A stretch of DNA of 59,912 nt, filler included. It is 3 parts of 3 records of this genome, joined end to end, with 100 filler letters (N's around TTAATTAATTAA, not from the genome) between each part and the next. Parts side by side here need not be neighbours in the genome. Positions count along the whole stretch, not along the records: positions 39,772 to 59,912 come from SRR22947725_2455; 2 more parts are not named here. One strand, 5' to 3'. Made by a program: the position numbers and the translations under genes. Position 1 is the first letter of the stretch. Each line of letters opens with the position of its first letter. The notes under the pieces were generated by a model, which was given only the letters and a program-made list of their open reading frames with translations, was not told where the DNA came from and searched no databases. Below, one piece after another: positions 11,316 to 58,661 of this stretch.

Positions 11316-11378
11316 ATGGGAGGAAGAAAAAGGCTTCAGCCTCCTGGCGCTTACCTTCTCAGGGCCTGAGACTCCCAT
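11316..11378 (-). terminator. Possible intrinsic terminator / structured element after the ABC operon
   Basis: Minus strand GGAGGC-TGAA-GCCTTT followed by TTCTT, plus a TCTCAG/CTGAGA hairpin, enclosed by ATGGGAG/CTCCCAT. Confidence 0.3.
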
Positions 11379-11429
11379 CTCCATTTAAAGCCTGCGCTAC
11401 CGCGGAATCGAAGCAAGAAAGTAGACGGA

Positions 11430-12416: not shown

Positions 12417-12445
12417 GAGGTGTTGAGTAAAAGATACCAGGTGAT

Positions 12446-13987: not shown

Positions 13988-14042
13988 GGAAATTCTGAGT
14001 CCAAGTTTGCTTCAATGCATCATCGGACACGATTGATCTGTG

Positions 14043-15038: not shown

Positions 15039-15161
15039 GGCGCGAGCTTAGTCACTTCAGTGGGTTTTTCAATGATTTTGGTGATGACTCGCCCTTGTTT
15101 TCCTGAGGCAGGGTTTAAAAAATCAATTTCAAACATTCATTCACTGGAATAAGATTGCCAC

Positions 15162-29491: not shown

Positions 29492-29591
29492 NNNNNNNNN
29501 NNNNNNNNNNNNNNNNNNNNNNNNNNNNNNNNNNNTTAATTAATTAANNNNNNNNNNNNNNNNNNNNNNNNNNNNNNNNNNNNNNNNNNNN
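29492..29591. other. Artificial contig spacer (N44-TTAATTAATTAA-N44)
   Basis: Exactly 100 nt, stops in all six frames; base composition and gene content change abruptly across it. Confidence 0.98.
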
Positions 29592-39671: not shown

Positions 39672-39771
39672 NNNNNNNNNNNNNNNNNNNNNNNNNNNNN
39701 NNNNNNNNNNNNNNNTTAATTAATTAANNNNNNNNNNNNNNNNNNNNNNNNNNNNNNNNNNNNNNNNNNNN
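39672..39771. other. Artificial contig spacer (N44-TTAATTAATTAA-N44)
   Basis: Identical to the first spacer. Confidence 0.98.
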
Positions 39772-40015: not shown

Positions 40016-40639
40016 CTACTTAGAAAATTTCTTTGCCCGCTTACTTACCCCAAATGACAAACCGGAGAGCCAACCTTCCAACCTTGCCGCTGGTCGTTTC
40101 CCATATTGATCTAGATCGCCACTTGGTTTAATAAGTCTTTTACCAGTAATATCGGATGCGATCTCATTGAGACTGGGTAATTGCTCTCCTGAGTCTTGAA
40201 GAGATTTATGCAAAAATGCAAGACGGTCTAATTCAAGCTGCCTGGATAAGCTAGCCAATGTCTGCCGAAATTGTGCAACATCCCCATCTCCATTTTGGCT
40301 CGAGTTGGGTTTATTATTATTTTCAATGATTGGACTTAGATGGTCTTCAGTACTATCTGCATTTTCTACTTCCTCATCTGGCAAATCTACACTGGCTTCT
40401 TTTTCGACATCTTGACTAGGAGGCTTATCTGCATGGAAGTCTTCATCAAAATCATTGATGCTGAAAGATTCTTCGCTACTATCAACCCCATCGCCTTCTT
40501 GATTTAATTGCGGAGGAATACCAACCTCTACAGAACCTGCTGAAACATCTTCATTTGCATCAGATTGATCGGTAGTATCCGGATCTGCTATAAGATCAGC
40601 AAGCTGTTCGTCAGTAGTATCTTCGGGGGGGGTATCCAC
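40016..40639 (-). CDS. Hypothetical protein: acidic disordered N-terminal two-thirds, helical basic C-terminus
   Basis: 207-aa ORF from GTG, very D/E-rich up to about aa 120, co-oriented with its neighbours. Confidence 0.6.
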   Translation of the reverse strand: MDTPPEDTTDEQLADLIADPDTTDQSDANEDVSAGSVEVGIPPQLNQEGDGVDSSEESFSINDFDEDFHADKPPSQDVEKEASVDLPDEEVENADSTEDHLSPIIENNNKPNSSQNGDGDVAQFRQTLASLSRQLELDRLAFLHKSLQDSGEQLPSLNEIASDITGKRLIKPSGDLDQYGKRPAARLEGWLSGLSFGVSKRAKKFSK

Positions 40640-40729
40640 AAGTAAAGTTAATAAGAAAAGCGAAGGATGGGGTAATTAAAAAAATTTAGCAAGAAATAAT
40701 ATAAACTGGAGATGGAAAGTTTTTTCACA

Positions 40730-41635
40730 CTATTCAAGAGTAATGTTTTGATCAACTTGATTCCTTTCTTCTGTAATTTGACCACTTCTTGTTACTATTA
40801 AAGTCTGCCCTTCCGAAGCAAAAGATGAATCCTTCACTTGTAATTGATCCATAAACTTCAAAAAAGAAAAGTTTTTTTGTACTAATGTCGCCTTTAAGCG
40901 AAAAGATAAATTAGATGTTGCATTTTCATTTCGAGTAATGAACTCCATATTATCGCGAAACCCATCGATATATCCGTTATTAATAAAGATTCCCTTACCA
41001 GACGGAGCACGATTTGCTACTACGATCTCTTTATCAACCGCATAATACAGATGGTGAGGTTTCTTGATTCCTTTCATCAGTCTACTCCGTTCTTCCTCAA
41101 AACTATCTGAAGCTAAATTCCGCTTAACCTCCAGAGAGTTGAACTTATTTTCTATCTGCTCTGCCTCCTGAGCGACCAAAGACAGAGTTTCTTGAAGTTT
41201 TAATTTCTCTTTTTCTATTATTTTCTTCTTCTCCTCAATCGGTTGGATTTGCATCACAATCTTGTCAATTGGTTCGCGAGCAGAAGAAATTTCTTGGTCT
41301 AATTTAGAAAGCTCATCAGATTTTTCCTTAATCTCTTTTTCTATAGTTGCGAGTCGAGGAGTAAATCCATCCACTTCCCCTTGCAAATCTTTGATCTTGG
41401 ATAAGGTTTCTTCTTCTTTATCTCGATAGTCGACACGACTCCTGTACAAGGCAGATAAAGCAAGATTCGATTCGTTTTTATCCAAATCAAGTTGAAGGGT
41501 GAGTTCCGCGTGTTTTTTTTGAACGAGTTCGAGATCCAGAGATAATGAATTCGAAGCATTTGGACCAAGAAGCATGTAAGCAAACAGGCCAAGCACCCCC
41601 AAAAAGGTGAAAACTCTAAAGATATATAAGGTCAA
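40730..41635 (-). CDS. Membrane-anchored coiled-coil protein with C-terminal beta domain
   Basis: N-terminal TM, long E/K/L heptad region, C-terminal IFINNGY.DGF...F beta-rich domain. Confidence 0.7.
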   Translation of the reverse strand: MTLYIFRVFTFLGVLGLFAYMLLGPNASNSLSLDLELVQKKHAELTLQLDLDKNESNLALSALYRSRVDYRDKEEETLSKIKDLQGEVDGFTPRLATIEKEIKEKSDELSKLDQEISSAREPIDKIVMQIQPIEEKKKIIEKEKLKLQETLSLVAQEAEQIENKFNSLEVKRNLASDSFEEERSRLMKGIKKPHHLYYAVDKEIVVANRAPSGKGIFINNGYIDGFRDNMEFITRNENATSNLSFRLKATLVQKNFSFLKFMDQLQVKDSSFASEGQTLIVTRSGQITEERNQVDQNITLE

Positions 41636-42461
41636 GGTTTGTAACTTCCAGTAACTCTTTTGGGTTTCCTAACAATGGAATAATCATGGCAATACAATGA
41701 TCAAATGCGACTTTATTTATCTTAATCTGACAAATCGACTTTCCATTTCCTCGAACGGCAAACCTCATGCTCTGCTCCAGTCCATGATTTTTCCCGATCG
41801 GTAGCATAATCATTCCCGTTTCTAAATCTAAGCTAGAAAACGAGACGCTTACTCGTTCACCTTTTTCCAACCAAGGATGTTCGTAGAAATCTTTCTGTAA
41901 TGCATATACCGTAAATTCAAAGTGCTCTTTTAATAGATCCGTCTCTCTATCATAAGACAAAATCTTTTTTTCTAATTCCATTATTCGATCTTTCTTCTGA
42001 GAAATATCATCTTCTAAAGATACAAGGGAGGATTGTAAATTGGGAACGAGGAGAGTCATCGAGCGTAAAGTACTCCTCGATCGGTCGATTTCCTTATCAA
42101 TCCCTGCTAGACTTATTTTGGCTTTTTGTATCGAGGAAGACAATTCTTCGACCTTCTTGGTTTTTTCCTCTAAAATAATACTCATCTCTCTCTTCTTACG
42201 ACTCAGATCAGTAATCTCTCCGACCGACGATTGTTCATTCACTTCTAATTCTGCATTTTTTCTTTTTTCCCGTGCAAATTTGTCGGACTGCCCTTTTTTT
42301 GCCTCATCTACAGCAAGCGTAATATCTTGGACTTTAGAATTAAAATCAGAAATTTCTTTTTCCAAAAATTCATTCTCTGCCTGCACAGAAAAAATCTGCC
42401 ATAATGCAACCGTACCCATAGCAAGGGTGAGAATATTTAAAATGTATCCTAATTTATACAT
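41616..42461 (-). CDS. Membrane-anchored coiled-coil protein with C-terminal beta domain (probable paralog of 40730..41635)
   Basis: N-terminal TM, coiled coil, then GMIMLPIGKNHGL...F.VR....ICQIKI..V....A.IIP. Confidence 0.7.
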   Translation of the reverse strand: MYKLGYILNILTLAMGTVALWQIFSVQAENEFLEKEISDFNSKVQDITLAVDEAKKGQSDKFAREKRKNAELEVNEQSSVGEITDLSRKKREMSIILEEKTKKVEELSSSIQKAKISLAGIDKEIDRSRSTLRSMTLLVPNLQSSLVSLEDDISQKKDRIMELEKKILSYDRETDLLKEHFEFTVYALQKDFYEHPWLEKGERVSVSFSSLDLETGMIMLPIGKNHGLEQSMRFAVRGNGKSICQIKINKVAFDHCIAMIIPLLGNPKELLEVTNLDLIYL

Positions 42462-42466
42462 TTATA

Positions 42467-43069
42467 TTAAAGAGGCGGCAAAGGAGCAAAGGGAGAGGGT
42501 GGTTCTTGTGTATCCAGATCATTGGGGTCACCTAAACCAGCTTCTGGCAATTGAGGTATACCTTCATTAAAATCTGTATTCATGGGCTCACTTGGCTCCA
42601 TATCAATGCCCTGAGGCAAAAATGGAGCAGGAAGAAATTCATCGCTTTTAGTAGTTTCTATTTCAGAGTCCTCATTTAATGATTCCGTACCTCCCTTCCC
42701 ATCAATTGTTGAGATCTGCGCCAATTCGATCTTTCTTGCTTCGATTAAATTACTGTTTGCCTCCTCCCATCGAAGATCTCGTTCTGCATTAAGTTTAGAT
42801 TTATTTATCTCCAAGAGATTTTCTCCCTTAAATGGTTTCATAACCCAGTAACGATCATGATCAATCCTACCCCACTCATCTCTACCGATGGACCGACCAA
42901 TTTTCTTGTTGTCATATTTTGAAATCATCCTTCTGTTCTCCAAGTCGTAATGATAACGGGCATCCCAAGCCTGATGGACCTTTGGAACTTGATTATCCTT
43001 CAATCCCCCACACCCTAAATTAAAAAATAGGAAAGCTAAGAAAATAATATGTGAAATAAATGGTCTCAA
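42467..43069 (-). CDS. Hypothetical lipoprotein with Pro/Glu-rich tail
   Basis: Lipobox NLGC; ends SPFAPLPPL; 5 nt from the next gene. Confidence 0.6.
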   Translation of the reverse strand: MRPFISHIIFLAFLFFNLGCGGLKDNQVPKVHQAWDARYHYDLENRRMISKYDNKKIGRSIGRDEWGRIDHDRYWVMKPFKGENLLEINKSKLNAERDLRWEEANSNLIEARKIELAQISTIDGKGGTESLNEDSEIETTKSDEFLPAPFLPQGIDMEPSEPMNTDFNEGIPQLPEAGLGDPNDLDTQEPPSPFAPLPPL

Positions 43070-43817: not shown

Positions 43818-44786
43818 CTACTCTTCCGCCACTGCATCCATAACCTCAGATGCAGCTTGTGCAGCAAGTGGAGTCGAAAGATAACGCTCCCCACAACTTG
43901 CACCAACCACGACAATATTTTTCCCTGCCATCTCAGGTCGTTTTGCAATTCTGAGTGCTGCTGTTACCGTGGCACCAGTTGAAATTCCACCTAGTACACC
44001 CTCAGTTAAACTTAACTCACGGGCCATCTCAAATGCGTCATCGCTACTTACCAGTTCAACCTCGTCGATAATGTCCAAATTGAGATTATTGGGAACAAAT
44101 CCTGCACCAATGCCTTGGATTTTGTGTGGACCCGGCTTAACTTCCTCCCCATTTCTTGTCTGGGTTATTACAGGACTTTCAATCGGTTCAACTGCAACCG
44201 CAATCATATCGGGGTTGCGCTTCTTGATCACCTCGGACACCCCAGTAATTGTTCCTCCAGTTCCCACTCCAGAAATAAAACAATCAATCTTGCCTTCCAT
44301 CCCTGACCAAATTTCTTCTGCAGTTGTTTTGCGGTGAACTTCGGGGTTCGCAGGATTGTTAAATTGTTGGGGCATAAAACCGTTTTCTCCATGCTCCTCC
44401 ATTAATTGACTCGCCTTTGAAATCGCTCCCCCCATTCCTTTTGGCCCTGGTGTAAGAACAATATCAGCTCCCAACAATCGAAGAAGCAATCTTCTTTCTT
44501 TGGACATAGTCTCGGGCATTGTAAGAATACATTTATATCCCTTCGCCGCGCAAACGAAGGCAAGCGCGATGCCTGTATTTCCAGAAGTGGGTTCAATTAC
44601 TACGCTATCTGGTTTTAATGAGCCGTCTTTTTCAGCAGCCTCAATCATCGCAGCACCGATTCGATCTTTTACGCTTGCGAGCGGATTAAAAAACTCAGAC
44701 TTAAGAAATATGCGAGCGCCACAATCCTTCGTTAATTTAGTAAGTTCCACCAAAGGTGTACGACCGATCGATTCAATAATATTCAT
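43818..44786 (-). CDS. cysK: Cysteine synthase A
   Basis: SVKDR (PLP Lys), TSGNTG, GVGTGGT, HKIQGIG and GERYLST motifs. Confidence 0.96.
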
Positions 44787-44820
44787 AATAACTTATTTTG
44801 AGTGAAAAAATGAAAAAGAA

Positions 44821-45099
44821 TTATCTTCTCTTACCTCGTGGACCAAAGCTTCGGATCGGCGCATTACGATTTACCTCCGCATTCTTTAAGCGATACACAA
44901 TTCTTGCCTTTTGCAAATCCTGCGTGCTCATTTCCATCTTAACAATATCGCCCACTGTAATTTTGATAAAATGTTTCCTCAGCTTTCCGGAAATATGAGC
45001 GAGTACTTGATGACCATTTTCAAGTTCTGCTCTAAACATTGTACTTGGTAAAACTGCGGTGATTTTACCCTCGACTTCAACAACTTCTTCTCCAGACAT
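44821..45099 (-). CDS. infA: Translation initiation factor IF-1 with basic C-terminal extension
   Basis: [16 protein letters not shown]...I.I..GD.V..E.S..DL..ARI.YR pattern. Confidence 0.95.
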
Positions 45100-45204
45100 A
45101 AATTTAATATAAAAGCTTCATAACACCATCTTTTAGGATTTCGTCAAGTTCGACCTTCTATTATAATTTAGATTAATTGCCGTAGTAAATTGTAAATCCC
45201 CCTA

Positions 45205-45717
45205 ATGCCAACCAAACAAAATTGTCCATTCACCAAGCTTTTCCCGAGTCAGTTAGAGAGAAACGCATCGTTTTATATGCAGCATGCCTACAACCAATCG
45301 ATTAATGGGTGGAATGCAGATGAGGTTCCTATCGGTGCTGTTATAGTCTTCAAGGATGAAATTATTGCTTCTGCTTACAATCAAACTCGGCAACAAAAAG
45401 ATCCGAGTGCCCATGCTGAAATGATTGCCATTACCCAGGCAGCAAAGTTCGTAGGCGATTGGCGGTTAAATGAATGTCAGTTATTTGTCACTAAAGAACC
45501 GTGTCCCATGTGTGCAGGTGCAACAATAATATCTCGCATGGGGGAAGTCCATTACGCATTTACAGATCCCAAAATGGGTGGCTTGGGCGGATCGACATCT
45601 TTGCATGAACTTCCACATTCAAATCATAAACCAAAGGTTTTCAAGGGAACTTTAGAGTTAGAATGTAAAAGCCTTATTCAGAAATTTTTCCAATTAAAAC
45701 GACTAGTTAACACTTAA
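45205..45717 (+). CDS. tadA: tRNA adenosine deaminase TadA
   Basis: EVPIGAV, DPSAHAE, WRL and EPCPMCAGA motifs. Confidence 0.9.
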   Translation: MPTKQNCPFTKLFPSQLERNASFYMQHAYNQSINGWNADEVPIGAVIVFKDEIIASAYNQTRQQKDPSAHAEMIAITQAAKFVGDWRLNECQLFVTKEPCPMCAGATIISRMGEVHYAFTDPKMGGLGGSTSLHELPHSNHKPKVFKGTLELECKSLIQKFFQLKRLVNT

Positions 45718-45808
45718 AAATCATTGCTTCCGCAAAATTATTTATTAATATTGGATTTTAATAAATTTATTAATTTCAAATAACTTTAATCCATAAATTA
45801 AAACCATT

Positions 45809-46429
45809 ATGACTTTTACATTACCAAACCTCCATTTTGCGACTGATGCACTCGAACCCCACATCGATGCAAGGACAATGGAAATTCATCACGGGAAGCA
45901 TCACCAGACCTACATTAATAATTTAAATGCTGCCCTCGAAGGCCATGATGATCTCTCAAAAATGGAAATTAATAATCTAATTTCAGATATTTCTTCCCTA
46001 CCCGAGTCGATTCGTGGTGCAGTTAGAAACAATGGCGGTGGACATGCTAATCATTCTTTTTTTTGGGAAAGTCTATCTCCGGAAGGCGGAGGCTTACCAG
46101 ATGGTGCATTGAATGAAGCTATCTCAGCAACTTTTGGTAATCTTGATGCATTGAAAGATACCTTTTTAAAAGCTTCGCTGACTCGATTTGGATCTGGTTG
46201 GGCTTGGCTTATCCAGCAATCAGACGGAACTTTAACAATTACATCTACTCCCAATCAAGATTCCCCACTAATGGAAGGAATCGCTGACGATATAGGTACT
46301 CCGCTAATTGGACTCGATGTATGGGAGCACGCCTATTACTTGAATTATCAGAATCGACGACCTGATTATGTTGCTGCATTTTGGAATGTGCTTGATTGGA
46401 ATCAAGTTTCATCAAGATTTCAATCATAG
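45809..46429 (+). CDS. sodA: Superoxide dismutase, Mn-type signature
   Basis: HHGKHH, NNGGGH.NH, FGSGWAW, NQD and [10 protein letters not shown] and QD residues indicate the Mn type. Confidence 0.92.
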
Positions 46430-46487
46430 CCCCACTTGGTAAAGAGGGAATCTTAGTTCCTTCTCCGCTTTAGTAGTTCGTTGTCAT

Positions 46488-48812
46488 ATGAGTTCTACTT
46501 TTAAGTATAGGGCATTTCTAACTTATGCTCACAAAGATGAGGAAAAAGCACGTTGGCTGCGTAAGAAATTAGAAGACTTTAGAGTACCAAAACATTTGAT
46601 TGGGCAAAACAGCCCTTTTGGCACTGTCCCTGGTAGACTTTATCCTATATTCAGAGACAGAGATGAATTGGCAGGTGCAGCACAGTTGGGTCCCCTGATT
46701 GAACAGGCTCTTAAGGACTCATCCCATCTTATCATTTTGTGTTCTCCCCACGCAGTTCAATCACGATGGGTAAATGAAGAGATTCGAATGTTCAAAGCGA
46801 TGGGGAAAGAAAATCGCGTTCTCTGCCTAATCCTTTCAGGAGAGCCTATGTCCGAAGATGCAAAGGGTGAAAGTAAAAATGAGTGTATTCCCCTCGCTGC
46901 GAGAAGACTAGTAAATGCAGAGGGTGAAATTACCGATCAAAAACATGAACCAGCCGCCGCCGATTTACGAGAAACAGCAGACGGCGAGAAAAATTCTTTG
47001 CTTAAATTAGTCGCTGGTTTGATTGGGGTGGGACTTGATGATCTCAAACAGAGGGATTTACTGGCTAGGCAAAAAAGGCTCGCACGAATTGCCTTTGTTT
47101 CCGCCATTCTAGCAATCTCTGCAATTTCACTTGCTGTATATGCGATGTTTCAACAACAACAGGCTAAAATAGCCCGGGCAAATGCTGAAATTGAAAAACA
47201 ATTAGCAATGGTAGAGTTGGCAAAAACGCAGACTATCACTGCTTTTGTTCAAAATCTTTTCATATCCCTTGACCCCCAAAACACCGCGGGAATGGATACA
47301 CAATTACTAAAAACAATGCTGGACCAAGGATCAAGAAGGGCCAACGAACTCGCAGAAAAACCGGAAATAGAAGCTAAAATCAGACTATGCCTGGGGCAGA
47401 CATACCGATCTATTCGATCGTATGAAAAAGCCGAAATTGAACTTGAACGGGTATTAACTCTTTATCATCGTCCGGATCAGTTAAATCTGACTATTCGGCT
47501 ACATGCAATGAACGAAATTGCCATGGTGCATGAAGCCCTTGGAAATTATGTCGAGGCAGAGCCAATGCTTGAAGAACTCCTTCAAAGGAGAACTCAATCA
47601 TTGGGAGCGAACCATAATGATGTCATTGATGCCCAAATCGACCTGGCCATTGTCTATCGTAGAATTGGTAAATTAGAACAGGCAGAAAATCGCTGTACCC
47701 AATCATTATCCCTCTTAAATGATCAGAATCGTACGCAAGACGATCCAATGTTGCTTCGTTGTATGACCGAACTTTCCAGGATTTACCTGGCGAGTGACAA
47801 GATTCAACAGGCGGAAAGCCTCGCTCGAAATACCTACGAACGCTCGAGACTACGCTTTGGAGCCAACAACCCCAAGAGTTTACGAAGAGGACAAGTTTTA
47901 GTGGAATGCTTAGGAAAACTAGGCAGATTAGATGATGCTCAGGACCTCTCGACTCAAATTGTATCAAAATTACAGTTGGCACTAGGGCAAAGCCACCCTG
48001 ATACGTTGGGAGCAATGGATTCTCTGGCCAATATTGCAGCGGCTCGAAATGATTTCAATCTAGCACTCGAACAGTACCTTCAAATACTAAAGCTTAAAGA
48101 AGAGGAACTCGGTTCGATGCATCCGGAAACTCTCAACACCCTCAATGCAACAGCCGAAATTTATCGAAAGCTTGATATGCTCGAAGAGGCAAAGAAGGCA
48201 CAATACACCGTCTATCAACGCTTGCAGGAAAAATACGGCCACGAACACCCCGAGACTCTAAGATCCATGAATGAATTAGCTGACTTACATCTAGAGTTAG
48301 GAGAAGAAGACAGTGCCTTTTCAATCAGCGAAAGAGCCCTTGCCATTGAGAGGGCAATTATGGGAGAGAAGGATCCAATGACTCTCAATACATTATTTAG
48401 AATTGGTAAATTACACTACCTCGCCCAGCGTACTGATGAGGCAATGGTTATCTTAGGCGAAACTCTTTCAAAACAAGAGAAGCTTCTAGGCTTTGATAAT
48501 GCAGAAGTTACTTTAACCCGTGACCTCCTGAACCAAATTCTGGGGGAAAGAGCAACTGCGATCAAGGTTACAGAAGATGTTTACCCCACCACTGAGGATC
48601 CAGAAGTCCAGTCCCCCTTACCTGATTTCCTTCGTCCGAAAGATCAAAACATTGCTCCTCCCCTGCCCCCTATTCTAGAAAAAAATTCAACTCTAGTGGA
48701 AGACACAATTGAAGATAAACCAAAGACCGTTGAGAAAGAAGGAGGGTTTTTCAAAAGCCTAAAAAGGACCTTACAAATCGGACCCGATACAAGAGACGAG
48801 ACTGCTGAGTAA
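46488..48812 (+). CDS. TIR domain - transmembrane helix - TPR repeat protein
   Basis: AFLTYAH.D, IFRDRDEL, ILCSP...SRWVNEEI (TIR_2); TM at about 47088-47150; about 42-aa TPRs with LG..HP.TL motifs. Confidence 0.88.
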   Translation: MSSTFKYRAFLTYAHKDEEKARWLRKKLEDFRVPKHLIGQNSPFGTVPGRLYPIFRDRDELAGAAQLGPLIEQALKDSSHLIILCSPHAVQSRWVNEEIRMFKAMGKENRVLCLILSGEPMSEDAKGESKNECIPLAARRLVNAEGEITDQKHEPAAADLRETADGEKNSLLKLVAGLIGVGLDDLKQRDLLARQKRLARIAFVSAILAISAISLAVYAMFQQQQAKIARANAEIEKQLAMVELAKTQTITAFVQNLFISLDPQNTAGMDTQLLKTMLDQGSRRANELAEKPEIEAKIRLCLGQTYRSIRSYEKAEIELERVLTLYHRPDQLNLTIRLHAMNEIAMVHEALGNYVEAEPMLEELLQRRTQSLGANHNDVIDAQIDLAIVYRRIGKLEQAENRCTQSLSLLNDQNRTQDDPMLLRCMTELSRIYLASDKIQQAESLARNTYERSRLRFGANNPKSLRRGQVLVECLGKLGRLDDAQDLSTQIVSKLQLALGQSHPDTLGAMDSLANIAAARNDFNLALEQYLQILKLKEEELGSMHPETLNTLNATAEIYRKLDMLEEAKKAQYTVYQRLQEKYGHEHPETLRSMNELADLHLELGEEDSAFSISERALAIERAIMGEKDPMTLNTLFRIGKLHYLAQRTDEAMVILGETLSKQEKLLGFDNAEVTLTRDLLNQILGERATAIKVTEDVYPTTEDPEVQSPLPDFLRPKDQNIAPPLPPILEKNSTLVEDTIEDKPKTVEKEGGFFKSLKRTLQIGPDTRDETAE

Positions 48813-48817
48813 ATAGC

Positions 48818-49483
48818 ATGGCATTAGGGGGGGTAATTTTTGATTGGGATGGAGTAGTAATTAATTCAGCATCTTTGCATGAGAAAAGCTGGGAGATGCT
48901 CGCCAATGAACTCGGTCTCAGCCTACCGAAAGACCACTTTATTCTTGGATTTGGAAAGAGAAATGAAATTATAATCCCCCAGATCCTAAAATGGACACAA
49001 AATAAAGATGAAATTTCGTTATGGGGAAAAAGGAAAGAAGAATTATACCGAGATTTGGGAAAAGCTGAGGGAATTCCAATCTTGGAAGGAGTTCGTACAC
49101 TTCTTCAATCATTGGCAAGAGAGGAAATTCCCTGTGTAATTGGAACTTCGACTGAGAAGAACAATCTTTCTCTTGCCTTCGAACAGTTAAAGATTGGTCA
49201 TTTTTTTTCCGGTTCAGTCTGTTCGGAAGATGTAACTCGTGGAAAACCGGATCCTGAGGTATTTCTGAAAGCGGCTCAAATTATCAATCAAGCTCCAGAA
49301 AACTGCGTGGTATTGGAAGACAGTACACACGGCATAGAAGCAGCAATTTCTGGCGGAATGAAAGCACTTGGGCTCTCCACGACGAGAACGGAAACGGAAC
49401 TGTTCGCAAGCGGTGCTCACAAGGTGGTTACCGACCCCACCATGGTAAACATCTCCTTGCTCAATAGCTTATTTATAAATTAA
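48818..49483 (+). CDS. HAD-family phosphatase (beta-PGM/CbbY-like)
   Basis: FDWDGV (DxD), GTS, GKPDPEVF and EDS..GIEAA motifs. Confidence 0.92.
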   Translation: MALGGVIFDWDGVVINSASLHEKSWEMLANELGLSLPKDHFILGFGKRNEIIIPQILKWTQNKDEISLWGKRKEELYRDLGKAEGIPILEGVRTLLQSLAREEIPCVIGTSTEKNNLSLAFEQLKIGHFFSGSVCSEDVTRGKPDPEVFLKAAQIINQAPENCVVLEDSTHGIEAAISGGMKALGLSTTRTETELFASGAHKVVTDPTMVNISLLNSLFIN

Positions 49484-49491
49484 ATGAACCT

Positions 49492-50811
49492 ATGAAAAAG
49501 CTCGCACTTCACTGGAAAATTCTGATCGCCCTACTCCTTGCATTTTCAATTGGCTTATGGGCAAATTTCACCACTGAATCTACAATAGAAAAACCGGCGT
49601 GGTTTGAGAATCTTCACTACTTTACCAATTTCGTGGGAAGTCTATTTCTAAACGCTCTTAAAATGGTTGTTATTCCGCTTGTCATGACTTCGATAATCTG
49701 TGGAGTTGCCAAGATTGGAGAAGATAAAGACTTTGGACGGTTAGGGCTCAAAACACTTTTCTTTTACTCCCTGACCGGACTCCTCGCTGTGGTCGTGGGA
49801 TTACTTTGCGTCAATTTAATCGAACCCGGACAGGTGGATCCAGAAATTCGTGAAAAAATGCTTTCCGGACAAAGTGCCCTTGAAGCTCAAAAGGTGGAAC
49901 GGGCATTTGAGCATGCCGATGGAGGCATGAAAGGCATTCTTGAAATTTTTCAAAGAATGATTCCCCAAAATCTTTTTAAAGCAGCAGTGGAGGGTCAACT
50001 TCTCGGTCTGATATTCTTTAGTTTACTCTTTGGCTTTTTTATTGCCCGGCTTCCCGGAAAATACAAACAAAGCCAGACCATATTTTGGGAAGGTCTCAAT
50101 TCAACCATTCTTGGAATTACGAATTTTGTAATCTCTTTTGCACCCTACGGTGTGTTTGGCTTAGTAACCCCTACCTTGATGATGGTTGGGATTGAAACCA
50201 TTTCCGTGATGGGGACATTTGCTTTAACGGTTCTTCTTGGACTGGCAATTCATAGCTTCCTGGTTCTGCCTATTTTACTTCGAATTCTTGGAAAGATTAA
50301 TTTCTTCCAACACTTTCAAGCACTATCTCCTGCCTTACTAACTGCCTTTTCAACCGCCTCCTCATCAGCAACTCTTCCCGTTACCCTCGATTGTATAACC
50401 AAACGAGCAGGGGTTTCCAAAAAAATTGCTAGCTTCACACTTCCTCTCGGGGCAACTATGAATATGGATGGAACTGCACTCTTTGAGTGCGTGGTGGTGG
50501 TCTTCCTCGCCCAGTTATTTGGTGTGGAAATGACATGGGTTACTCAATCCACAGTTGTAATCATGGCATTACTCACCTCAATAGGAGTTGCCGGGATTCC
50601 CTCAGCCAGTCTCGTTGCAATCATAGTAATTTTACACGCGGTGGGTTTTCCGGATGCTACCATTTCGATCGGAGTGGGTATCGTTTTTGTCGTCGACCGG
50701 CTCCTCGATATGACTCGTACTGCAGTCAATGTACTAGGTGATAGTTGTGCCGCTGCCATTATTGGCAAATCCGAAGGCGAGACTGGATACTACCCGAGTA
50801 ATCCGGGCTGA
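49492..50811 (+). CDS. Dicarboxylate/amino acid:cation symporter (GltP/DAACS)
   Basis: [27 protein letters not shown] and DRLLDM.RTAVN..GD motifs. Confidence 0.94.
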
Positions 50812-50837
50812 ATTCCTGTACTTAATAAGGGGGTAAT

Positions 50838-52880
50838 ATGGATTTTCGATTACAATCGGATTATCAACCAATGGGTGATCAACCGCAGGCCATAAAAGGA
50901 CTCGTGGAATCAATATCAAAGGGCAACATGGACCAAACCCTCTTGGGTGTTACTGGATCAGGAAAAACTTTCTCCATGGCCAATGTGATCCAGGATTTAC
51001 AACGGCCGGCATTAATTATTTCTCCTAATAAAACTTTAGCTGCTCAATTATATTCAGAATTCAAAGCTTTCTTTCCCAATAATGCCGTAGAATACTTCGT
51101 AAGTTACTATGATTACTATCAACCCGAAGCCTATGTCCCCTCGACCGATACATTTATCGAAAAGGACTCCTCTATTAATGAAGAAATTGAACGCTTACGA
51201 CTGGCAGCGACCAGTTCATTAATTAGCCGTCGCGATGTCATCGTTATTGCCAGTGTTTCGTGTATTTATGGATTAGGTTCACCCGATGATTTTGAGGCAT
51301 TATCTATTGAAATAACCAAAGGGCAAGACCTGGGTAGAGATAACTTACTCGAAGGATTGGTCGAAGCATTGTACAATCGCAATGACATGGAATTAAAAGC
51401 CGGTCGGTTTCGAGTTCGTGGAGATGTAGTCGATTTATTTCCTGCCTATGCAAACAATCCAATTCGCGTGGAATTTTGGGGGGATGAAGTAGAGGACATT
51501 CGTGAAATTGATCCAATTTCAGGAGAAACAATTCGTAAATATGATTCATATCGAGTGTACCCGGCGACACAATATGTTACAACTAAGGACAAGTTGGAGG
51601 TTGGGTGTAAAGCGATTGAAAAAGAACTCGAAGAACAAGTTAAACATTTTGAAGGAAGCAATCTTTTACTGGAGGCCCAACGTATCCGTATGCGTACTGA
51701 ATATGATTTAGAGATGCTTCGAGAAATTGGTTTTTGTAATGGAATTGAAAATTATTCAAGGCACTTATCGGGAAGAAAGCCAGGAGAGCGCCCATGGTGT
51801 CTGATCGACTTTTTCCCCGAAGACTTTCTTCTCTTTATTGATGAAAGTCATGCATCAATTCCTCAAATTGGGGGAATGTTTAAAGGGGACCTTTCAAGAA
51901 AGCAGAAACTTGTGGACTTTGGATTTCGCCTCCCGTCTGCCTTGGACAATCGTCCACTTAAACCCGAAGAGTTTGAAAGTGTAACCGGCCAATCTATCTA
52001 TGTCTCGGCCACTCCTGCTGCAGTTGAACTCGAAAAGTCGTCAGTGGTTATGGAACAGCTTATTCGCCCCACTGGTCTACTTGATCCCGAAATGGAAATA
52101 CGTCCGATAAAAGGACAAGTGGAAGACTGTATCGGGGAAATCAAAAAAGTGGTCAAACAGGGCTATCGAATTTTGGTGACCACCTTAACCAAAAGAATGA
52201 CTGAGGACTTAGCCGAATTCCTAAGAGATCACGAAATAAAAGTCGAATACCTACACTCCGATATTGATGCGATTGAACGGGTAGAAATTCTCAGAAGTCT
52301 TCGAGCTGGAACTTTCGACGTGCTGGTAGGAGTCAATCTATTACGGGAAGGTTTAGATTTACCGGAAGTGGCATTGGTCATTGTGCTGGATGCAGATAAA
52401 GAGGGATTTCTTCGTAGCGAGACCAGCTTGATCCAAACTGCCGGAAGGGCTGCAAGGCATGAAAAGGGAAGAGTGATCTTTTACGCAGATGTAATGACCA
52501 AGTCGATCACCAGGACACTTCAAGTATGCCAATATCGAAGAGACAAGCAAATGGCATATAATGAAGAACATGGTATTACTCCCCAGAGCGTGATTCGACC
52601 TCTACAAGAAAGTTTACGTTCCAAGAAAGAAGAGAGTGAAGATTTATTAGCGGTTTCCGAAAATGTTTCAAAGGAAGATATCCGCAAACTCCTTAAGGAA
52701 CTAGAGAAAGACATGCTCGCAGCAGTAAAGAAATTGGAGTTTGAAAAAGCCGCTCTGCTGCGCGATCAAATCTCTTTTCTCAAGGAAGGTGGGAAAAACC
52801 TTAAAACTGCCCAGACCGGGGGTTACTCTGGGGGAAAGAAGTACGGAAGAAAGAAAAAGTATGGAAAAAAGAAATTCTAA
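50838..52880 (+). CDS. uvrB: Excinuclease ABC subunit UvrB
   Basis: GVTGSGKT, YYDYYQPEAY, DESH, SATP and LREGLDLPEV motifs; C-terminal UVR domain FEKAALLRD. Confidence 0.98.
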   Translation: MDFRLQSDYQPMGDQPQAIKGLVESISKGNMDQTLLGVTGSGKTFSMANVIQDLQRPALIISPNKTLAAQLYSEFKAFFPNNAVEYFVSYYDYYQPEAYVPSTDTFIEKDSSINEEIERLRLAATSSLISRRDVIVIASVSCIYGLGSPDDFEALSIEITKGQDLGRDNLLEGLVEALYNRNDMELKAGRFRVRGDVVDLFPAYANNPIRVEFWGDEVEDIREIDPISGETIRKYDSYRVYPATQYVTTKDKLEVGCKAIEKELEEQVKHFEGSNLLLEAQRIRMRTEYDLEMLREIGFCNGIENYSRHLSGRKPGERPWCLIDFFPEDFLLFIDESHASIPQIGGMFKGDLSRKQKLVDFGFRLPSALDNRPLKPEEFESVTGQSIYVSATPAAVELEKSSVVMEQLIRPTGLLDPEMEIRPIKGQVEDCIGEIKKVVKQGYRILVTTLTKRMTEDLAEFLRDHEIKVEYLHSDIDAIERVEILRSLRAGTFDVLVGVNLLREGLDLPEVALVIVLDADKEGFLRSETSLIQTAGRAARHEKGRVIFYADVMTKSITRTLQVCQYRRDKQMAYNEEHGITPQSVIRPLQESLRSKKEESEDLLAVSENVSKEDIRKLLKELEKDMLAAVKKLEFEKAALLRDQISFLKEGGKNLKTAQTGGYSGGKKYGRKKKYGKKKF

Positions 52881-53640
52881 ACTGTTCGCGTTTATATTCT
52901 TTTTTTTAGCTGCTAGCCTCCTTCGGGGGGAACTTGAATCAAAAAAGAAATTATTATTTTTCTTTGATAAAATTGAAGTAAATGGAAATGTTGATGTTTT
53001 TTTGGTAAAGGGCAAACGTTTGAGGGAAGCGTCTGTTTATGCAGATACAGAGATTATTCAATCGATTAAAACTAAGGTTTCCAGGAAGACACTATTTATC
53101 GATGCAAATAACACCTATAATATAGCTCGTCGGTTACCATTTATAAGACTCAATGCAGAAAGAACTTATCCAGTTGAAATCGTAGTTTCGGTTGAAGAGA
53201 TTCGTGAAATTCGTCTCCTCGGACAGAGTAATCTGACAGCAGAAAATCTGAGAGCCAAAAAAATCTCCTTATTTATGGCAAGTTCCGGAAAACTTCATAT
53301 TGATAACCTAGCTGCCGAAGTATTAAATGTAATCCACGAGGGATCTGGTAACATTTTACTCAAAGGAAATATAAGTGAAGAGATGGAAGTAAAAGTCTCT
53401 GAAAATGGATCGTTCATTGCCGATGAATTGGAAGTAGAACGAGCAACCCTGATACACCAAGGAAATGGAATCGTTCACCTGAAACCTAATAAATGGATGG
53501 ATGCAAGAATTTTGGGGAATGGAAATATTTTTTTACACTCCAAACCTGAGAGATTGATTATTAATAAACAAGGGCTCGGTACGATTAAGGACATCTTACC
53601 CGATTCAGCCCCCCTCTACGATCTCAACAACTCCAAGTAG
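52861..53640 (+). CDS. DUF2807 / GIN-domain (putative adhesin head) beta-helix protein
   Basis: Signal peptide from ATG 52861; FDKIEVNGNVDV then repeating SG/GNG beta-solenoid units. Confidence 0.75.
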   Translation: MEKRNSKLFAFIFFFLAASLLRGELESKKKLLFFFDKIEVNGNVDVFLVKGKRLREASVYADTEIIQSIKTKVSRKTLFIDANNTYNIARRLPFIRLNAERTYPVEIVVSVEEIREIRLLGQSNLTAENLRAKKISLFMASSGKLHIDNLAAEVLNVIHEGSGNILLKGNISEEMEVKVSENGSFIADELEVERATLIHQGNGIVHLKPNKWMDARILGNGNIFLHSKPERLIINKQGLGTIKDILPDSAPLYDLNNSK

Positions 53641-53648
53641 GAAAGAGA

Positions 53649-54494
53649 TTAAATTGTAATTACTTCGCCTTCAATGGCAGGACGAACTCCATCCCTAAGA
53701 GAAGAAACTTCCTTCGCGATTTGATCCATTTTTTCATCATTGTGGGAAGGATCGTGGTGAAAGAGTAATGTCTGTTTTACATTAGCAGCTTCGGCTACCT
53801 TTAGTGCTTCCTGCCAAGTTGAATGCCCCCAACCTTTAAAATTTTGATACTCCTCATTGGTGTAAGCAGAGTCGTACACCATAATATCGGCATTTTTAGC
53901 AAGGGTAACCACATTTTCATCAATCCGATCTTCAAAGTGTTCAGTATCGGTACAAATTGCGATGACCTTGTCGGCAAATTCAATTCGATAGCCACAGGCT
54001 CCGTTGGGGTGATTTAATTGACCGGTTTTAATTGTAATACCGCCCTCCAAAGAAAATTCGTGCCCACAATCGTAGTCGTTAAATGAACATGCTTTTTCAA
54101 TGAGCGCGCTGGGGACTGGAAAGACTGGGTCCTTCATAAGCATTGTCCCTATAATGCCGTGTAAATCATATTTATCTCCTGCAAGGTGACCCGCGTGGAG
54201 GCGAACATTGCTATTGGGATTATACAAAGGAGCAAAAAATGGTAATCCCTGGATGTGATCCATGTGGGTATGAGTAAAAAATAAATCAGCATCGAGCAGA
54301 TTTTTTTCTTCGATCATAATTTTCTTACCCAATAAACGAATACCAGTGCCAGCATCAATAATCACTCGTTTATCACCACAGAAAATTTCAAAGCAAGTAG
54401 TATTACCTCCGTATTTGATCGTATCAGGACCAGGACATGGAATACTTCCGCGCGTCCCCCAAAATTTTATGCTTAATGATGTTGGGCTGTTCAT
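53649..54494 (-). CDS. MBL-fold metallo-hydrolase (RNase Z / phosphodiesterase-like)
   Basis: FWGTRGS, GGNT.C, DAGTG, THTHMDH, HP...GYR, TDTE, GHS and FHHDP motifs. Confidence 0.9.
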   Translation of the reverse strand: MNSPTSLSIKFWGTRGSIPCPGPDTIKYGGNTTCFEIFCGDKRVIIDAGTGIRLLGKKIMIEEKNLLDADLFFTHTHMDHIQGLPFFAPLYNPNSNVRLHAGHLAGDKYDLHGIIGTMLMKDPVFPVPSALIEKACSFNDYDCGHEFSLEGGITIKTGQLNHPNGACGYRIEFADKVIAICTDTEHFEDRIDENVVTLAKNADIMVYDSAYTNEEYQNFKGWGHSTWQEALKVAEAANVKQTLLFHHDPSHNDEKMDQIAKEVSSLRDGVRPAIEGEVITI

Positions 54495-54571: not shown

Positions 54572-55552
54572 CTATTCTCGATCAATCCAATTCCCATTTT
54601 CATCTTGGAATGAATTTGTTAAAACTCCTTCTCCCCAGTCGTAAAAGCCTTCTATTGCCAATCCCTGGAGAAACTTTCCAGTATAACTTGTACCATCCCC
54701 AAAATCGAGGGTACCAGCACCCTGTTTCTCTCCATTTGACCAAGATCCACTGTATACAACTCCGGATTGATCGGTCTGAACTCCTTGACCATTGGGCACT
54801 CCGGATAAAAATCCACCCGAGTAAACCGAACCGTCATTTTCAGTTAAAATACCGTATCCAGAAAATTCCCCCTCTTTAAATGACCCGGTATAAATACTTC
54901 CATCTGCAGTTCTCAACATGCCCTTTCCCCAATATATGTTTTTTTGAAACCTTCCCGTGTAATGATCTCCATTAATCGAGAGTAAACTACCATAAGAAAA
55001 AACTCCCTCCCCTGCAAAACTTCCGGAGTATTCAGCACCATCCTCTAACCTCATCGTGCCCTCTTCTAAATAATCTTTATTCCATTTCCCCGACATTATT
55101 ACTCCATTTGAACTTTGGTATTCACCATAATTAAGATTATCATTCTTCCAGTCCCCGACCAATCGAGAAGAATCTTCCAATATTAATGTACCAAAACCAT
55201 ACCTTTTCCCACTTCTCCAATTCCCGACATATCGATCTAATTTAGATTCAGACTTATACCTCATTGTACCATGTCCATGTGCAAAACCATCTGTATGTTG
55301 CCCTTCAAAGATATCTCCGTTTACCAGATTATGGGTACCAAAACCATTTGGCTTACCCTTCACTAATTCTCCCTCATATATTGAACCATCTTTAAATACA
55401 TGTCTTCCACGCATTGCTTCTTTATTAAGAGTAATTGATTCCCGTGAAGATGAAACTTCAATTTCATCTTCTTGTTGGGTACAACCGAAAAAAAGCCAAT
55501 TAAGGAGAATACTGAGACTGAACAGGGAGAGTTTTAACTGAGTACAATACAT
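54572..55552 (-). CDS. MORN-repeat lipoprotein
   Basis: Lipobox FFGC; about ten Y.G.F..G...G.G repeats of about 23 aa. Confidence 0.88.
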   Translation of the reverse strand: MYCTQLKLSLFSLSILLNWLFFGCTQQEDEIEVSSSRESITLNKEAMRGRHVFKDGSIYEGELVKGKPNGFGTHNLVNGDIFEGQHTDGFAHGHGTMRYKSESKLDRYVGNWRSGKRYGFGTLILEDSSRLVGDWKNDNLNYGEYQSSNGVIMSGKWNKDYLEEGTMRLEDGAEYSGSFAGEGVFSYGSLLSINGDHYTGRFQKNIYWGKGMLRTADGSIYTGSFKEGEFSGYGILTENDGSVYSGGFLSGVPNGQGVQTDQSGVVYSGSWSNGEKQGAGTLDFGDGTSYTGKFLQGLAIEGFYDWGEGVLTNSFQDENGNWIDRE

Positions 55553-55554
55553 TT

Positions 55555-56820
55555 TTAATAACTAATACTTTTACTGACCTGAAAAATACTACTTACGATT
55601 GATATTGCAACTAAGGCGACTAAAGAAAAAGCGAAGCCGAGAGCACCTCCGGAAACTAATGTCGTCATTGTCTTTATTTTCTTCGTTAATTGTTCACGAA
55701 ATGAATGGCTACTATCTTCCATGCTGTTACCCAGATTTCCAGTTCGCTCACCCACTTCAAGAATATCGAGTTGCATTAATGGCATAAGTTTAAATTTACG
55801 CAGAGCTTCGGGAAGAGATTTCCCTTCATTTACCAAGGCCCGAGCCGAGCGAAAACGGGCTCTTATATATCGATTGCGAATTGTTTTCTCACACAAACGC
55901 AAGTTTTCAGTTAAGCCAATCCCACTCCAAATCAAAGTGGAAAGCAAACTTGCCAACTGGAACATTTCAGACAGATATATAATATTCCCAAAGAGTGGGA
56001 GTTTGAGCATGGTTTGGTCAAAAGTCATCCCCCCTTTTTCTGTCTTACTCCATTGAATTATAGTTCCCGAGGCAATTAATAAACCAATCAGAACGAATGG
56101 CCCCACTGCGAGTACCCAGTTTGAACCATTGATCAAAACTCGTGCCATAAGGTTTAACTCACCGCCAAGGGATGCAAGCATTTCTTCGATTTGAGGCAGT
56201 AAGAAAAAGAGAAAGAATAAAACGACCCCAAATGCAACCAAACCCACAAATACTGGGTACGCCATGCTGCCAAGAACCTTCGATTTTATTTCTCTTTTCT
56301 CCTCCAAGTGAGAAATAATTTTTTTTAATATGGGAGAAACATTTCCAGTCGCCTCTCCTGCCTCAATTACGAAACTGGAGGATTCGCTAAAATATTCAGG
56401 TAAGTTTCTCATTGCTCGAGACAATGTTTTCCCTTCCGCCAATTCCTTCCATAAAACACCTGCAATCTCCTTTTGCCCTGGGTCTGATAGTCGTTGATTG
56501 AGCAGTTTAACTGCATCAGCAACCGGCATTCCGCTGCTATGTAATTCTAATAATCTTTTGAGAAATTCTAAACCAATCTTCTCCCCTTTTCCACGAACTC
56601 CTTTTTTCGTTTCATTGAAAGCCTTCTTTTTAGAACTAGATATTTTTTTCGTCTTCTTTTTATCTTTTTCTAACCCTCCCCCAGAAACTGACTTAATTTG
56701 AAGAGGGGTTAATCCTTTCTGCCTAATTTTCTGGCGTGCTTGCTTTGCATCATTCGCTGCAATCTCACCAGGCAGGGTCTTCCCCTTTGAATCGATTGCA
56801 ACATATTTGAATTTGGCCAT
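55555..56820 (-). CDS. Type II secretion/type IV pilus inner-membrane platform (GspF/PilC)
   Basis: F.Y.A.D..G start, SG.P...A, AGEATG, YP, GERTG and three TM segments. Confidence 0.9.
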   Translation of the reverse strand: MAKFKYVAIDSKGKTLPGEIAANDAKQARQKIRQKGLTPLQIKSVSGGGLEKDKKKTKKISSSKKKAFNETKKGVRGKGEKIGLEFLKRLLELHSSGMPVADAVKLLNQRLSDPGQKEIAGVLWKELAEGKTLSRAMRNLPEYFSESSSFVIEAGEATGNVSPILKKIISHLEEKREIKSKVLGSMAYPVFVGLVAFGVVLFFLFFLLPQIEEMLASLGGELNLMARVLINGSNWVLAVGPFVLIGLLIASGTIIQWSKTEKGGMTFDQTMLKLPLFGNIIYLSEMFQLASLLSTLIWSGIGLTENLRLCEKTIRNRYIRARFRSARALVNEGKSLPEALRKFKLMPLMQLDILEVGERTGNLGNSMEDSSHSFREQLTKKIKTMTTLVSGGALGFAFSLVALVAISIVSSIFQVSKSISY

Positions 56821-56857
56821 TAAGAGATAAGTTCCCGAGATTGGAGTAGTTTAAACA

Positions 56858-58657: not shown

Positions 58658-58661
58658 CTAA

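Follow-up and report, generated by a model that had tools for sequence, protein, structure and literature searches.

Background

TIR (Toll/interleukin-1 receptor) domains of bacteria have been studied almost only as soluble phage-defence enzymes. ThsB of the Thoeris system and the other bacterial TIR proteins that act as NADases or signal makers are soluble, are encoded in defence islands and are paired with an adjacent effector. We describe here a protein that has the TIR fold in common with them and that places a catalytic-type TIR domain behind a membrane-spanning sensor. It is the 774-residue product of a gene at positions 46488..48812 (plus strand) of a 59,912-nt stretch of three joined contigs (the window), and it combines an N-terminal TIR domain, a single transmembrane (TM) helix and a C-terminal array of tetratricopeptide repeats (TPRs). 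The gene is one of marine Verrucomicrobia.

The bacterial TIR architectures described in the available parts of the literature comprise TIR alone or with short additional regions, for instance TM segments, TIR combined with a nucleotide-binding domain and LRR, WD40 or TPR repeats, and an N-terminal TIR with C-terminal TPRs (PMC9153377, PMC7075850). The closest single-protein case is TIR-II of E. coli, which likewise has TIR and TPR in one polypeptide and protects against phages, for which the TIR active-site residues are required. In the available sections of its description, on which our comparison is based, it is presented as a candidate defence system, about 30% of the members carry an ATPase domain, and a membrane helix is not reported (PMC11350192). 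Two further families are relevant as possible readers of TIR products. RyR-domain proteins bind or cleave 2'cADPR and 3'cADPR, two cyclic ADP-ribose (cADPR) signals, according to the accessible part of one report (PMC13232231), and a TPR domain belonging to the type that Burroughs and Aravind predicted has been proposed, in the accessible part of another, as the perceiver of cADPR in type VIII Thoeris (10.64898/2025.12.03.692087). A search of the full-text literature returned no description of a bacterial TIR-TM-TPR protein or of a membrane-anchored TIR receptor; TIR partners with a TM segment in TPR-S systems may have been mentioned before by Burroughs and Aravind (2020), and one figure legend, as far as that source was available, lists 'TM' among the domains of TPR-S-type operons (10.1101/2023.05.26.542521).

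Animal Toll-like receptors (TLRs) follow the same logic as the protein described here, with an ectodomain built as a solenoid, one TM helix and a TIR domain in the cytoplasm. Their TIR domains are scaffolds without NADase activity, and their ectodomains are built from LRR instead of TPR repeats. The order of the parts is also opposite, the ectodomain of TLRs being N-terminal and the TIR domain C-terminal (available sections of PMC7075850). The TLR-like shape of the target is convergent and not inherited.

Domain architecture

The gene and the parts of its product are as follows (all on the plus strand):

46488..48812: TIR-TM-TPR gene, 774 aa, an intact open reading frame (ORF) with an ATG start (ORF list, translation)
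46488..47027: TIR domain, residues 1-180, with the core at residues 1-120 (Pfam, model, Foldseek); the extension, residues 121-180, is conserved, contains a beta-hairpin and carries the motifs EC.P.A and EP.AAD.R..DG
46767..46781: WxxxE helix, W94-V-N-E-E98, with the catalytic-type glutamate E98 (invariant; aligned to L6 and TLR2)
47046..47087: basic, predicted cytoplasmic juxtamembrane stretch, residues 187-200 (KQRDLLARQKRLAR; lysine/arginine bias)
47088..47150: predicted single TM helix (signal-anchor), residues 201-221 (hydropathy)
47151..47492: post-membrane helix and juxtamembrane block, residues 222-335, common to kinase-TM-TPR proteins
47493..48575: TPR_10/TPR_12 solenoid, kinesin-light-chain type, residues 336-696, predicted extracytoplasmic (Pfam, model)
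48576..48809: acidic, proline-containing C-terminal tail, residues 697-774, predicted disordered (predicted local distance difference test, pLDDT, below 50)

By profile as well as by fold, the N-terminal part is a TIR domain. Pfam TIR_2 (PF13676) matches residues 10-117 (E 4e-10; 40.7 bits, curated cutoff 28) and ThsB_TIR matches residues 10-112 (39.4 bits, cutoff 21.2), and AlphaFold2 gives residues 1-195 alone the flavodoxin-like TIR fold at a mean pLDDT of 89.4 and a predicted template modelling score (pTM) of 0.87. The PDB matches listed by Foldseek are all TIR domains (TLR15, SPARTA TIR-APAZ, TLR1, SARM1, RPP1, MAL, RUN1, AbTir and EcThsB), with E values from 2.6e-4, TM-scores of 0.4-0.65 and identities to the solved domains of at most 20%. 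W94 and E98 are invariant in 64/64 and 38/38 aligned relatives, as are many other residues of the domain, and the family profile pairs them with W and E in the segments 'SKWCLMEL' of the flax L6 TIR and 'SEWCKYEL' of TLR2. The conserved Glu is critical to NADase activity, and Trp and Glu contact the ligand in SARM1 (PMC7075850, in the part available). In its motif, a catalytic-type Glu with a Trp four residues before it, the domain resembles the NADase and signal-making TIR enzymes.

With the single sequence, solved structures were matched only at E values of 0.53 or more, and the profile search reached 2.4e-5; in the ESM Atlas, residues 1-230 matched generic TIR clusters only. The NCBIfam model of Thoeris type III ThcB4 gave 20.2 bits for a cutoff of 220. 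The predicted self-association of two copies of residues 1-195 scored 0.16, the mark being 0.32, which weighs neither way. As a side observation, the TIR-module profile also hits (E 0.0032, at its positions 68-122) an 824-residue chain of PDB entries 9m0n and 9umd that is labelled 'Tetratricopeptide repeat protein' and may be a solved TIR-TPR protein; a literature search on 9M0N/9UMD found nothing relevant.

The repeats belong to the kinesin-light-chain type. Pfam TPR_12 (E 3.6e-43) and TPR_10 (E 3.6e-33) match from about residue 338 onward, and the TPRs of kinesin light chain itself match by sequence at E 1e-15. In the full-length AlphaFold2 model (64 homologues; mean pLDDT 80.7), residues 1-180 are alpha/beta, a long helix spans residues 183-259 with low confidence in its membrane part (190-215), and 20 helices, or about ten hairpins, lie between residues 270 and 696. 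The helix pairs start at residues 335, 377, 420, 462, 504, 546, 588, 630 and 672, a period of 42-43 residues. A fold search with the full-length model returned only generic TPR superhelices, among them those of LGN, KLC, OGT and APPBP2, which bind peptides. NCBIfam NF040586, the TPR protein of the FxSxx-COOH system, reached 144.6 bits for a cutoff of 300 and covered residues 302-531 only, so that the target appears to lie outside that family. The tail is 22% identical among Opitutales orthologues; near its end a short helix (residues 754-762) with a recurring GFF..LK patch is kept in many of them.

Kinship of the ectodomain with receptor kinases

The block behind the helix links the protein to another class of receptors. 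Residues 236-335, which comprise the post-helix block and the first TPR, were searched exhaustively with HMMER against 1.84 billion library representatives, and 1611 proteins were found at E<=1e-3. The Hanks kinase catalytic-loop motif is present in 100 of the 149 best representatives (the query's own cluster left out), and all 100 have a hydrophobic segment just before the matched block; the first 53 of them were scanned, and 53/53 matched Pfam Pkinase as well as TPR_12. Among the 49 proteins without the motif, the 28 of at least 350 residues were scanned and proved to be 2 TIR proteins, 5 N-terminally cut kinases, 1 NB-ARC protein and 20 proteins with TPR-type domains only, two of these also with YaiO or Sel1; the 21 shorter ones stayed outside the domain scan.

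The kinase-TM-TPR proteins, those with a name coming from Planctomycetota, Phycisphaerales, Bryobacteraceae and Thermoanaerobaculales, have the same TM helix, juxtamembrane block and TPR array as the target. They are 30-44% identical to it over the 100-residue block, and the output domain is N-terminal and predicted cytoplasmic in both, with the same positive-inside bias. Invariant residues of the block are F253, L257, P263, L278, D279, P292 and A296. The difference lies in the output domain, which is a TIR and not a kinase in the target; a Pfam scan of the target gave no Pkinase match. For the nearest kinase, P0171, the named relatives are 10 Planctomycetota/Phycisphaerales and 2 Acidobacteriota. 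Sequence comparison thus confirms the homology of the TM-proximal block and the TPR array to the module that makes up the predicted extracytoplasmic part of Hanks kinase-TM-TPR proteins in Planctomycetota and Acidobacteriota, and the target would work like a receptor kinase in which the kinase has been replaced by a TIR domain. To our knowledge these kinase receptors have themselves not been characterised.

Membrane topology

Residues 201-221 are the sole segment of the protein with a Kyte-Doolittle value above 1.6 (2.31 over 19 residues; the next best elsewhere reaches 0.91). Within 15 residues, six lysines or arginines precede the helix (LKQRDLLARQKRLAR) and two follow it. The same bias runs through the TIR family, with the N-side flank richer in these residues in 64/64 members (mean 5.4 versus 2.0), and of these 64 relatives 57 have exactly one segment above 1.6, one has two and six stay below the threshold (minimum 1.32). 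Of 98 kinase relatives, 97 likewise have one hydrophobic segment; lysine and arginine are more numerous on the N side in 82 of the 98, equally frequent on both sides in 12 and less numerous there in 4.

A kinase requires ATP and a TIR enzyme requires NAD+, and both are therefore expected in the cytoplasm. With a single span and a cytoplasmic output domain, the repeats would then lie outside, in the TIR and the kinase families alike, and the predicted topology is N-in, with the TIR domain in the cytoplasm and the TPR array on the other side of the membrane.

An earlier note, drawn up from the letters of the DNA, had proposed an N-terminal TIR domain with an intact WxxxE helix (W94 to E98), one TM helix with the TIR domain inside and the repeats outside, and roughly 8-10 TPRs of about 42 residues. 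The matches to TIR_2, TPR_10 and TPR_12, the invariance of the motif in the aligned relatives, the single segment with its positive-inside bias in 64/64 relatives and the approximately ten hairpins of 42-residue period in the model agree with this description. The same note had seen a likeness between the juxtamembrane block and Ser/Thr kinase-TM-TPR receptors, which the search given above (100/149 with the kinase motif, 53/53 with Pkinase) bore out.

A family of TIR-TM modules

A word-indexed search returned 446 relatives at E<=1e-3 among 8000 scored candidates. Marine metagenomes and Opitutales-named records are the source of the full-length orthologues, which are 48-87% identical; the same architecture recurs, at 29-34% identity, in a second group from Woeseiaceae and other Gammaproteobacteria. 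In species-representative genomes there were at least 607 pattern matches, at least 590 of them encoding a relative, and the best 80 were kept as 79 loci (L001 to L079). All of the 17 best loci (L001-L017) have Verrucomicrobiota, Opitutia, Opitutae, Opitutales or Puniceicoccaceae in their titles, and they are referred to as the Opitutales loci.

In a search for longer proteins with the TIR-module profile, 7981 of the 8000 scored candidates matched at E<=1e-20, at which the search was saturated. The TIR-TM module is highly conserved, its mean column identity being 64% over 38 sequences, which include records titled Verrucomicrobia, Opitutales, Gammaproteobacteria, Acidobacteriota and Solidesulfovibrio. 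What follows the helix varies: WD40 propellers in L027, L069 and L078 (Pfam) and in L033 (by sequence inspection), a different TPR-like array in L038, L058, L059, L066 and L073, and an uncharacterised domain in L075. Among the 120 matches listed, 5 carry WD40, 1 carries PDZ, 2 are TIR only and the rest belong to TPR families, as read from the table. A paralogous TIR-TM gene with 13 WD40 repeats (L027:8001-10880), 50% identical to the target over residues 1-226, was noted in the same genome bin as orthologue L009; one Opitutales genome therefore encodes a pair of predicted receptors that differ in the outside domain. Members of this very large, uncharacterised family are labelled in public databases only as 'toll/interleukin-1 receptor domain-containing protein' or 'TPR repeat protein'.

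Trees of the ectodomain, made from the 300 residues after the helix, suggest that the output domain has changed more than once. In a FastTree tree of 26 TIR and 97 kinase rows and in a quick IQ-TREE tree of 17 and 32 rows, TIR-bearing ectodomains stand in four spots among the kinase-bearing ones, and the strongly supported branches force at least three output-domain changes. The sister of the Opitutales clade is a kinase pair (P0171 and P0233; support 86). The approximately unbiased (AU) test disfavours a single TIR clade only marginally (p 0.05 when all TIR rows are grouped, p 0.042 when those of Opitutales and Gammaproteobacteria are). These trees are unrooted, the repeats are hard to align and the kinase rows were chosen by their likeness to the target. 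On this evidence, one receptor chassis has probably had its output domain exchanged repeatedly. The swap from kinase to TIR that had been put forward beforehand stands in so far as kinase forms dominate among the matches (100/149 with the motif and 5 cut kinases, next to 2 TIR proteins); its direction, for which the far greater number of kinase forms is the sole basis, and a single origin are not established.

Genomic context and conservation

Artificial linkers at 29492-29591 and 39672-39771 join the three contigs that make up the window. Each linker has two 44-N runs flanking a 12-base all-frame stop spacer, and genes on either side of one are not genomic neighbours. The target lies on the third contig (39772-59912), which matches Candidatus Seribacter sulfatis NZ_CAXLMO010000081.1 (locus L001) at 99.46% over 17,038 bases. 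This match ends at the linker: L001 has other genes upstream and resembles the window only from 39772 onward. The true neighbours are, in order:

minus strand, on the target contig before tadA: dtd, cysK, infA
plus strand: tadA; the Mn/Fe superoxide dismutase gene sod; the target; a gene for a HAD hydrolase of the beta-phosphoglucomutase family; a gene for a GltP/DctA-like SDF transporter; uvrB

The genes from sod onward are closely packed, with gaps of 58 bp between sod and the target, 5 bp between the target and the HAD gene, 8 bp between the HAD and SDF genes and 26 bp between the SDF gene and uvrB. In the region 44700-53700, 13 promoter-like sites were found with 17.7 expected, and 9 terminator-like sites with 8.2 expected; these counts are uninformative on operon structure. 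No defence, mobility or toxin genes were found on the target contig.

This arrangement is kept across the Opitutales loci. The HAD gene follows the target orthologue in 15 of the 16 loci with downstream DNA (the exception is L006), and the SDF transporter gene and uvrB follow in 15/15 loci that reach far enough. Upstream, sod occurs in 12 of the 17 loci: it is next to the target orthologue in 8, and some 4.3-4.7 kb separate the two in 4 (L006, L011, L012, L014). In three of these four (L006, L012 and L014) the ORF lists have three co-directional genes at the sod-TIR junction; the first gene of the L012 insert encodes 828 aa with a FecR domain, and the other two gave no Pfam match. A functional link between the target and the HAD hydrolase encoded 5 bp downstream was considered and dropped, the HAD gene being absent from L006 and from all non-Opitutales loci. 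The low-GC block at 29.6-39.7 kb was likewise dropped as context of the target, as it is a separate contig.

Across the Opitutales loci the target is conserved about as well as sod and HAD and less well than uvrB, with identities to the proteins of the window of 49-88% for the target, 65-85% for sod, 55-79% for HAD and 77-93% for uvrB. Within the target, the identity in the Opitutales group is distributed as follows:

TIR core: 78%
TIR extension: 65%
juxtamembrane block: 67%
TPR array: 65%
tail: 22%

To the distant group the TIR core is still 53% identical and the TPR array 21%, the core being the best-conserved part. The TIR module (residues 1-230) had no match in 50,697 phage records and matched only 10 of 72,556 plasmid records, these ten being 0.24-2.4 Mb in length. 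The pattern points to vertical inheritance, with purifying selection along the entire gene, unlike that of a fast-evolving mobile defence sensor. The gene is neither part of a defence island nor mobile cargo, given its fixed place in 17/17 Opitutales loci and the phage and plasmid counts. It is also not a Thoeris component: the system-specific models were weak or sub-threshold and there is no adjacent ThsA-like or other effector. Compared with Thoeris, the target has a membrane-anchored TIR domain, a predicted outside sensor, housekeeping neighbours and no effector next door.

Two statements of the earlier note bear on this context and fared differently. That the gene sits among housekeeping genes and not in a defence island is borne out by the contig itself and by the gene order in the 17 Opitutales loci. 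A phage or defence trigger, such as the phage protein or envelope damage that the note had proposed, is not favoured by the same synteny, by the 65% identity of the ectodomain or by the phage and plasmid searches.

Neighbours of the relatives' genes

Outside the Opitutales, a TIR ORF was called in 53 of 62 loci (L022, L036, L037, L040, L044, L049, L053, L065 and L070 were dropped), and clustering of the 367 flanking ORFs gave, as the most frequent neighbour, a family of about 500-1080 aa that occurs in 17 loci, directly downstream in 14. Of its members, 3 were scanned and 2 of these had NHL or Big_2 domains; many of the loci are titled Steroidobacteraceae, so that the cases may not be independent.

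Possible receivers of a TIR product were sought by a local phmmer search for TPR-S and RyR neighbours over 4007 ORFs (79 loci and the window), confirmed by Pfam. Those found near TIR-TM genes are:

L074:5656-7986, L075:9874-12162, L078:5600-7510 and L051:13034-14953: TPR-S fused to an adenylate/guanylate cyclase; the fusion in L075 additionally has an N-terminal RyR domain
L031:3414-5276, L032:6062-7996 and L055:6119-7981: TrkA_N plus RyR proteins of 620-644 aa

One or the other is present in 7 of the 79 loci and co-directional with the TIR-TM gene in 6 of these 7. The six co-directional partners lie 5-20 bp away in five cases, which include the TrkA_N-RyR genes of three Gammaproteobacteria (Haliea, Microbulbifer and Kineobactrum), located at this distance upstream of TIR-TM-TPR genes, and about 470 bp away in L078; the partner in L051 is 3.1 kb off on the opposite strand. 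The arrangement, in which these 7 loci resemble the TPR-S- and RyR-centred TIR systems, suggests that TIRs of this clade make a nucleotide signal that is passed to a cyclase or to a regulator of the K+-transport type, that is, a relay and not a killing device. The TPR-S-cyclase neighbours could form a relay from a TIR signal to cyclic nucleotide monophosphates. The target and the 16 other Opitutales orthologue loci differ from these systems in having no such neighbour, and the target's own repeats are TPR_10/12 and not TPR-S.

Other features of the window

The remaining observations concern the rest of the window. On the target contig, four consecutive ORFs of 200-301 aa at 40016-43069 (minus strand) have no Pfam match: one at 40016-40639, and three at 40733-43069 that, when compared, had syntenic counterparts of 28-69% identity in nine other Opitutales loci. 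At the end of the same contig, 54572-59873 (minus strand) holds a gene for a MORN-repeat protein and then type II secretion system (T2SS) or pilus genes (T2SS F, T2SS E ATPase and secretin). The middle contig (29592-39671) has a GC content of 0.28-0.34, compared with about 0.42 on the target contig and 0.45-0.51 on the first; it holds the housekeeping genes recJ, hom, rpsI, rplM, trpD, trpC, moaC, moeA, lexA and gltX, and may come from another organism in the same bin.

On the first contig, an H-NOX (haem-NO-binding) gene adjoins one whose product is a hybrid histidine kinase of 976 aa with the domains HNOBA, PAS, HisKA, HATPase, receiver and Hpt (25420-28886, minus strand), and the two are likely a two-component pair sensing nitric oxide or oxygen. 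The region 3327-16727 of that contig holds three sulfatase genes, a sodium:solute symporter gene and an ABC sugar-uptake set (binding protein, ATPase and permease), and looks like a cluster for the utilisation of sulfated glycans.

Discussion

The reading that accounts best for the architecture, the kinship with receptor kinases and the conserved context is an outside-in, type II (N-in) single-pass receptor of the inner membrane with a TIR output acting on NAD+, to which we would give about an even chance. The periplasmic solenoid of about ten TPR hairpins would bind a conserved ligand of the periplasm or envelope, probably a peptide or protein segment held in its groove; alternatively, the ectodomain would change its self-association. 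Either event would bring the cytoplasmic TIR domains together, and NAD+ turnover would follow clustering, as TIR active sites are proposed to form only in assemblies. The favoured output, over a suicidal drain of NAD+, would be a nucleotide derived from ADP-ribose, the receiver of which would be encoded at another place in the genome. Signalling is preferred to NAD+ exhaustion because the gene is a fixed core gene, both of its halves are conserved and its relatives are wired to relay proteins. The topology, the oligomerisation, the catalysis, the product and the sensed ligand are presumptive parts of this scheme. In the Opitutales lineage, sequence and gene order indicate a conserved sensor of the housekeeping type and not a mobile phage-defence gene.

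Several points weigh against the receptor reading. TPR_10/12 arrays are usually cytoplasmic, and the predicted topology requires the export of a TPR domain of 550 residues. Catalytic competence rests on one motif and the fold, because the identity to any solved TIR is at most 20%, and the ThsB models of PADLOC match weakly (E 2e-3 to 7e-3). No TPR-S, RyR or other candidate receiver was found in the window or within 8 kb in the 17 Opitutales loci, and the signalling branch therefore rests on distant relatives of 29-34% overall identity in other phyla. By sequence, moreover, an NAD+-depleting (abortive) output is indistinguishable from a signalling one. Finally, the conserved HAD hydrolase downstream, missing in L006, has no evident link to the target.

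The alternative that survives best is a sensor of abortive infection or phage defence, in which the periplasmic TPRs would detect a phage protein or envelope damage and the clustered TIR domains would deplete NAD+, so that the cell stops growing or dies. The precedent of E. coli TIR-II, a single TIR and TPR protein that protects against phages and needs its TIR active-site residues to do so (as far as PMC11350192 was available), speaks for it, together with the match of the target to ThsB_TIR and the invariant catalytic-type Glu. Against these stand the fixed housekeeping place in 17/17 Opitutales loci, an ectodomain that at 65% identity is not hypervariable, a contig (39772-59912) free of defence genes, PADLOC matches of E 2e-3 at best, and a TIR module without phage matches and with matches in only 10/72,556 plasmid records; moreover, the partners of the relatives are cyclase and TrkA_N fusions and not killing effectors. 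We therefore regard a defence role as unlikely.

A non-enzymatic role fits the data still less well and appears quite improbable. Here the TIR domain would serve only for protein-protein assembly, like that of animal TLR adaptors, and would bring cytoplasmic partners to a TPR platform that spans the envelope, for example in envelope biogenesis or secretion. The best fold and profile matches do include the non-catalytic TIRs of TLR15, TLR1 and TLR2, and the fold matches to LGN, KLC, OGT and APPBP2 illustrate the general use of TPR solenoids as platforms for protein binding. However, W94, E98 and many further TIR residues are invariant, the Glu being critical to NADase activity in the available part of PMC7075850, and a TIR core that is 53% identical between Opitutales and distant relatives fits an enzyme better than an adaptor. 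That the topology is wrong, the helix not spanning the membrane or both domains being cytoplasmic as in an ordinary cytosolic TIR-TPR protein, is very improbable: six of 64 relatives do fall under the hydropathy threshold of 1.6 (minimum 1.32), the model is of low confidence at 190-215 and TPR_10/12 arrays are generally cytosolic, but the segment (2.31 over 19 residues) is unique in the protein, the charge bias holds in 64/64, the helix is kept in relatives with WD40 or other repeat C-termini, and the same helix and block follow a kinase domain in relatives of which 97/98 have one such segment.

The receptor reading, if it is correct, has consequences beyond this gene. Tentatively, and short of calling it probable, we suggest that the clade may represent a class of bacterial transmembrane signal transducers beside histidine kinases, Hanks kinases and receptor cyclases. 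In such a class, extracytoplasmic repeats (TPR, WD40 or other) would control TIR assembly, and an NAD+-derived nucleotide would be an ordinary second messenger for physiology and not only for immunity, relayed in some lineages by a TPR-S-cyclase or TrkA_N-RyR protein encoded next door and produced, in marine Opitutales, by a fixed core gene. The outside part of the target is common to receptor kinases, and in one marine lineage the gene behaves as a conserved core gene. If the TIR domain is active and controlled from outside, NAD+-derived nucleotides would be outputs of bacterial outside-in signalling, and the protein would be an independently reached bacterial case of the ectodomain-TM-TIR logic of TLRs. 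Given the size of the family, with at least 590 encoding stretches in species-representative genomes, the biochemistry of one member would annotate many genes.

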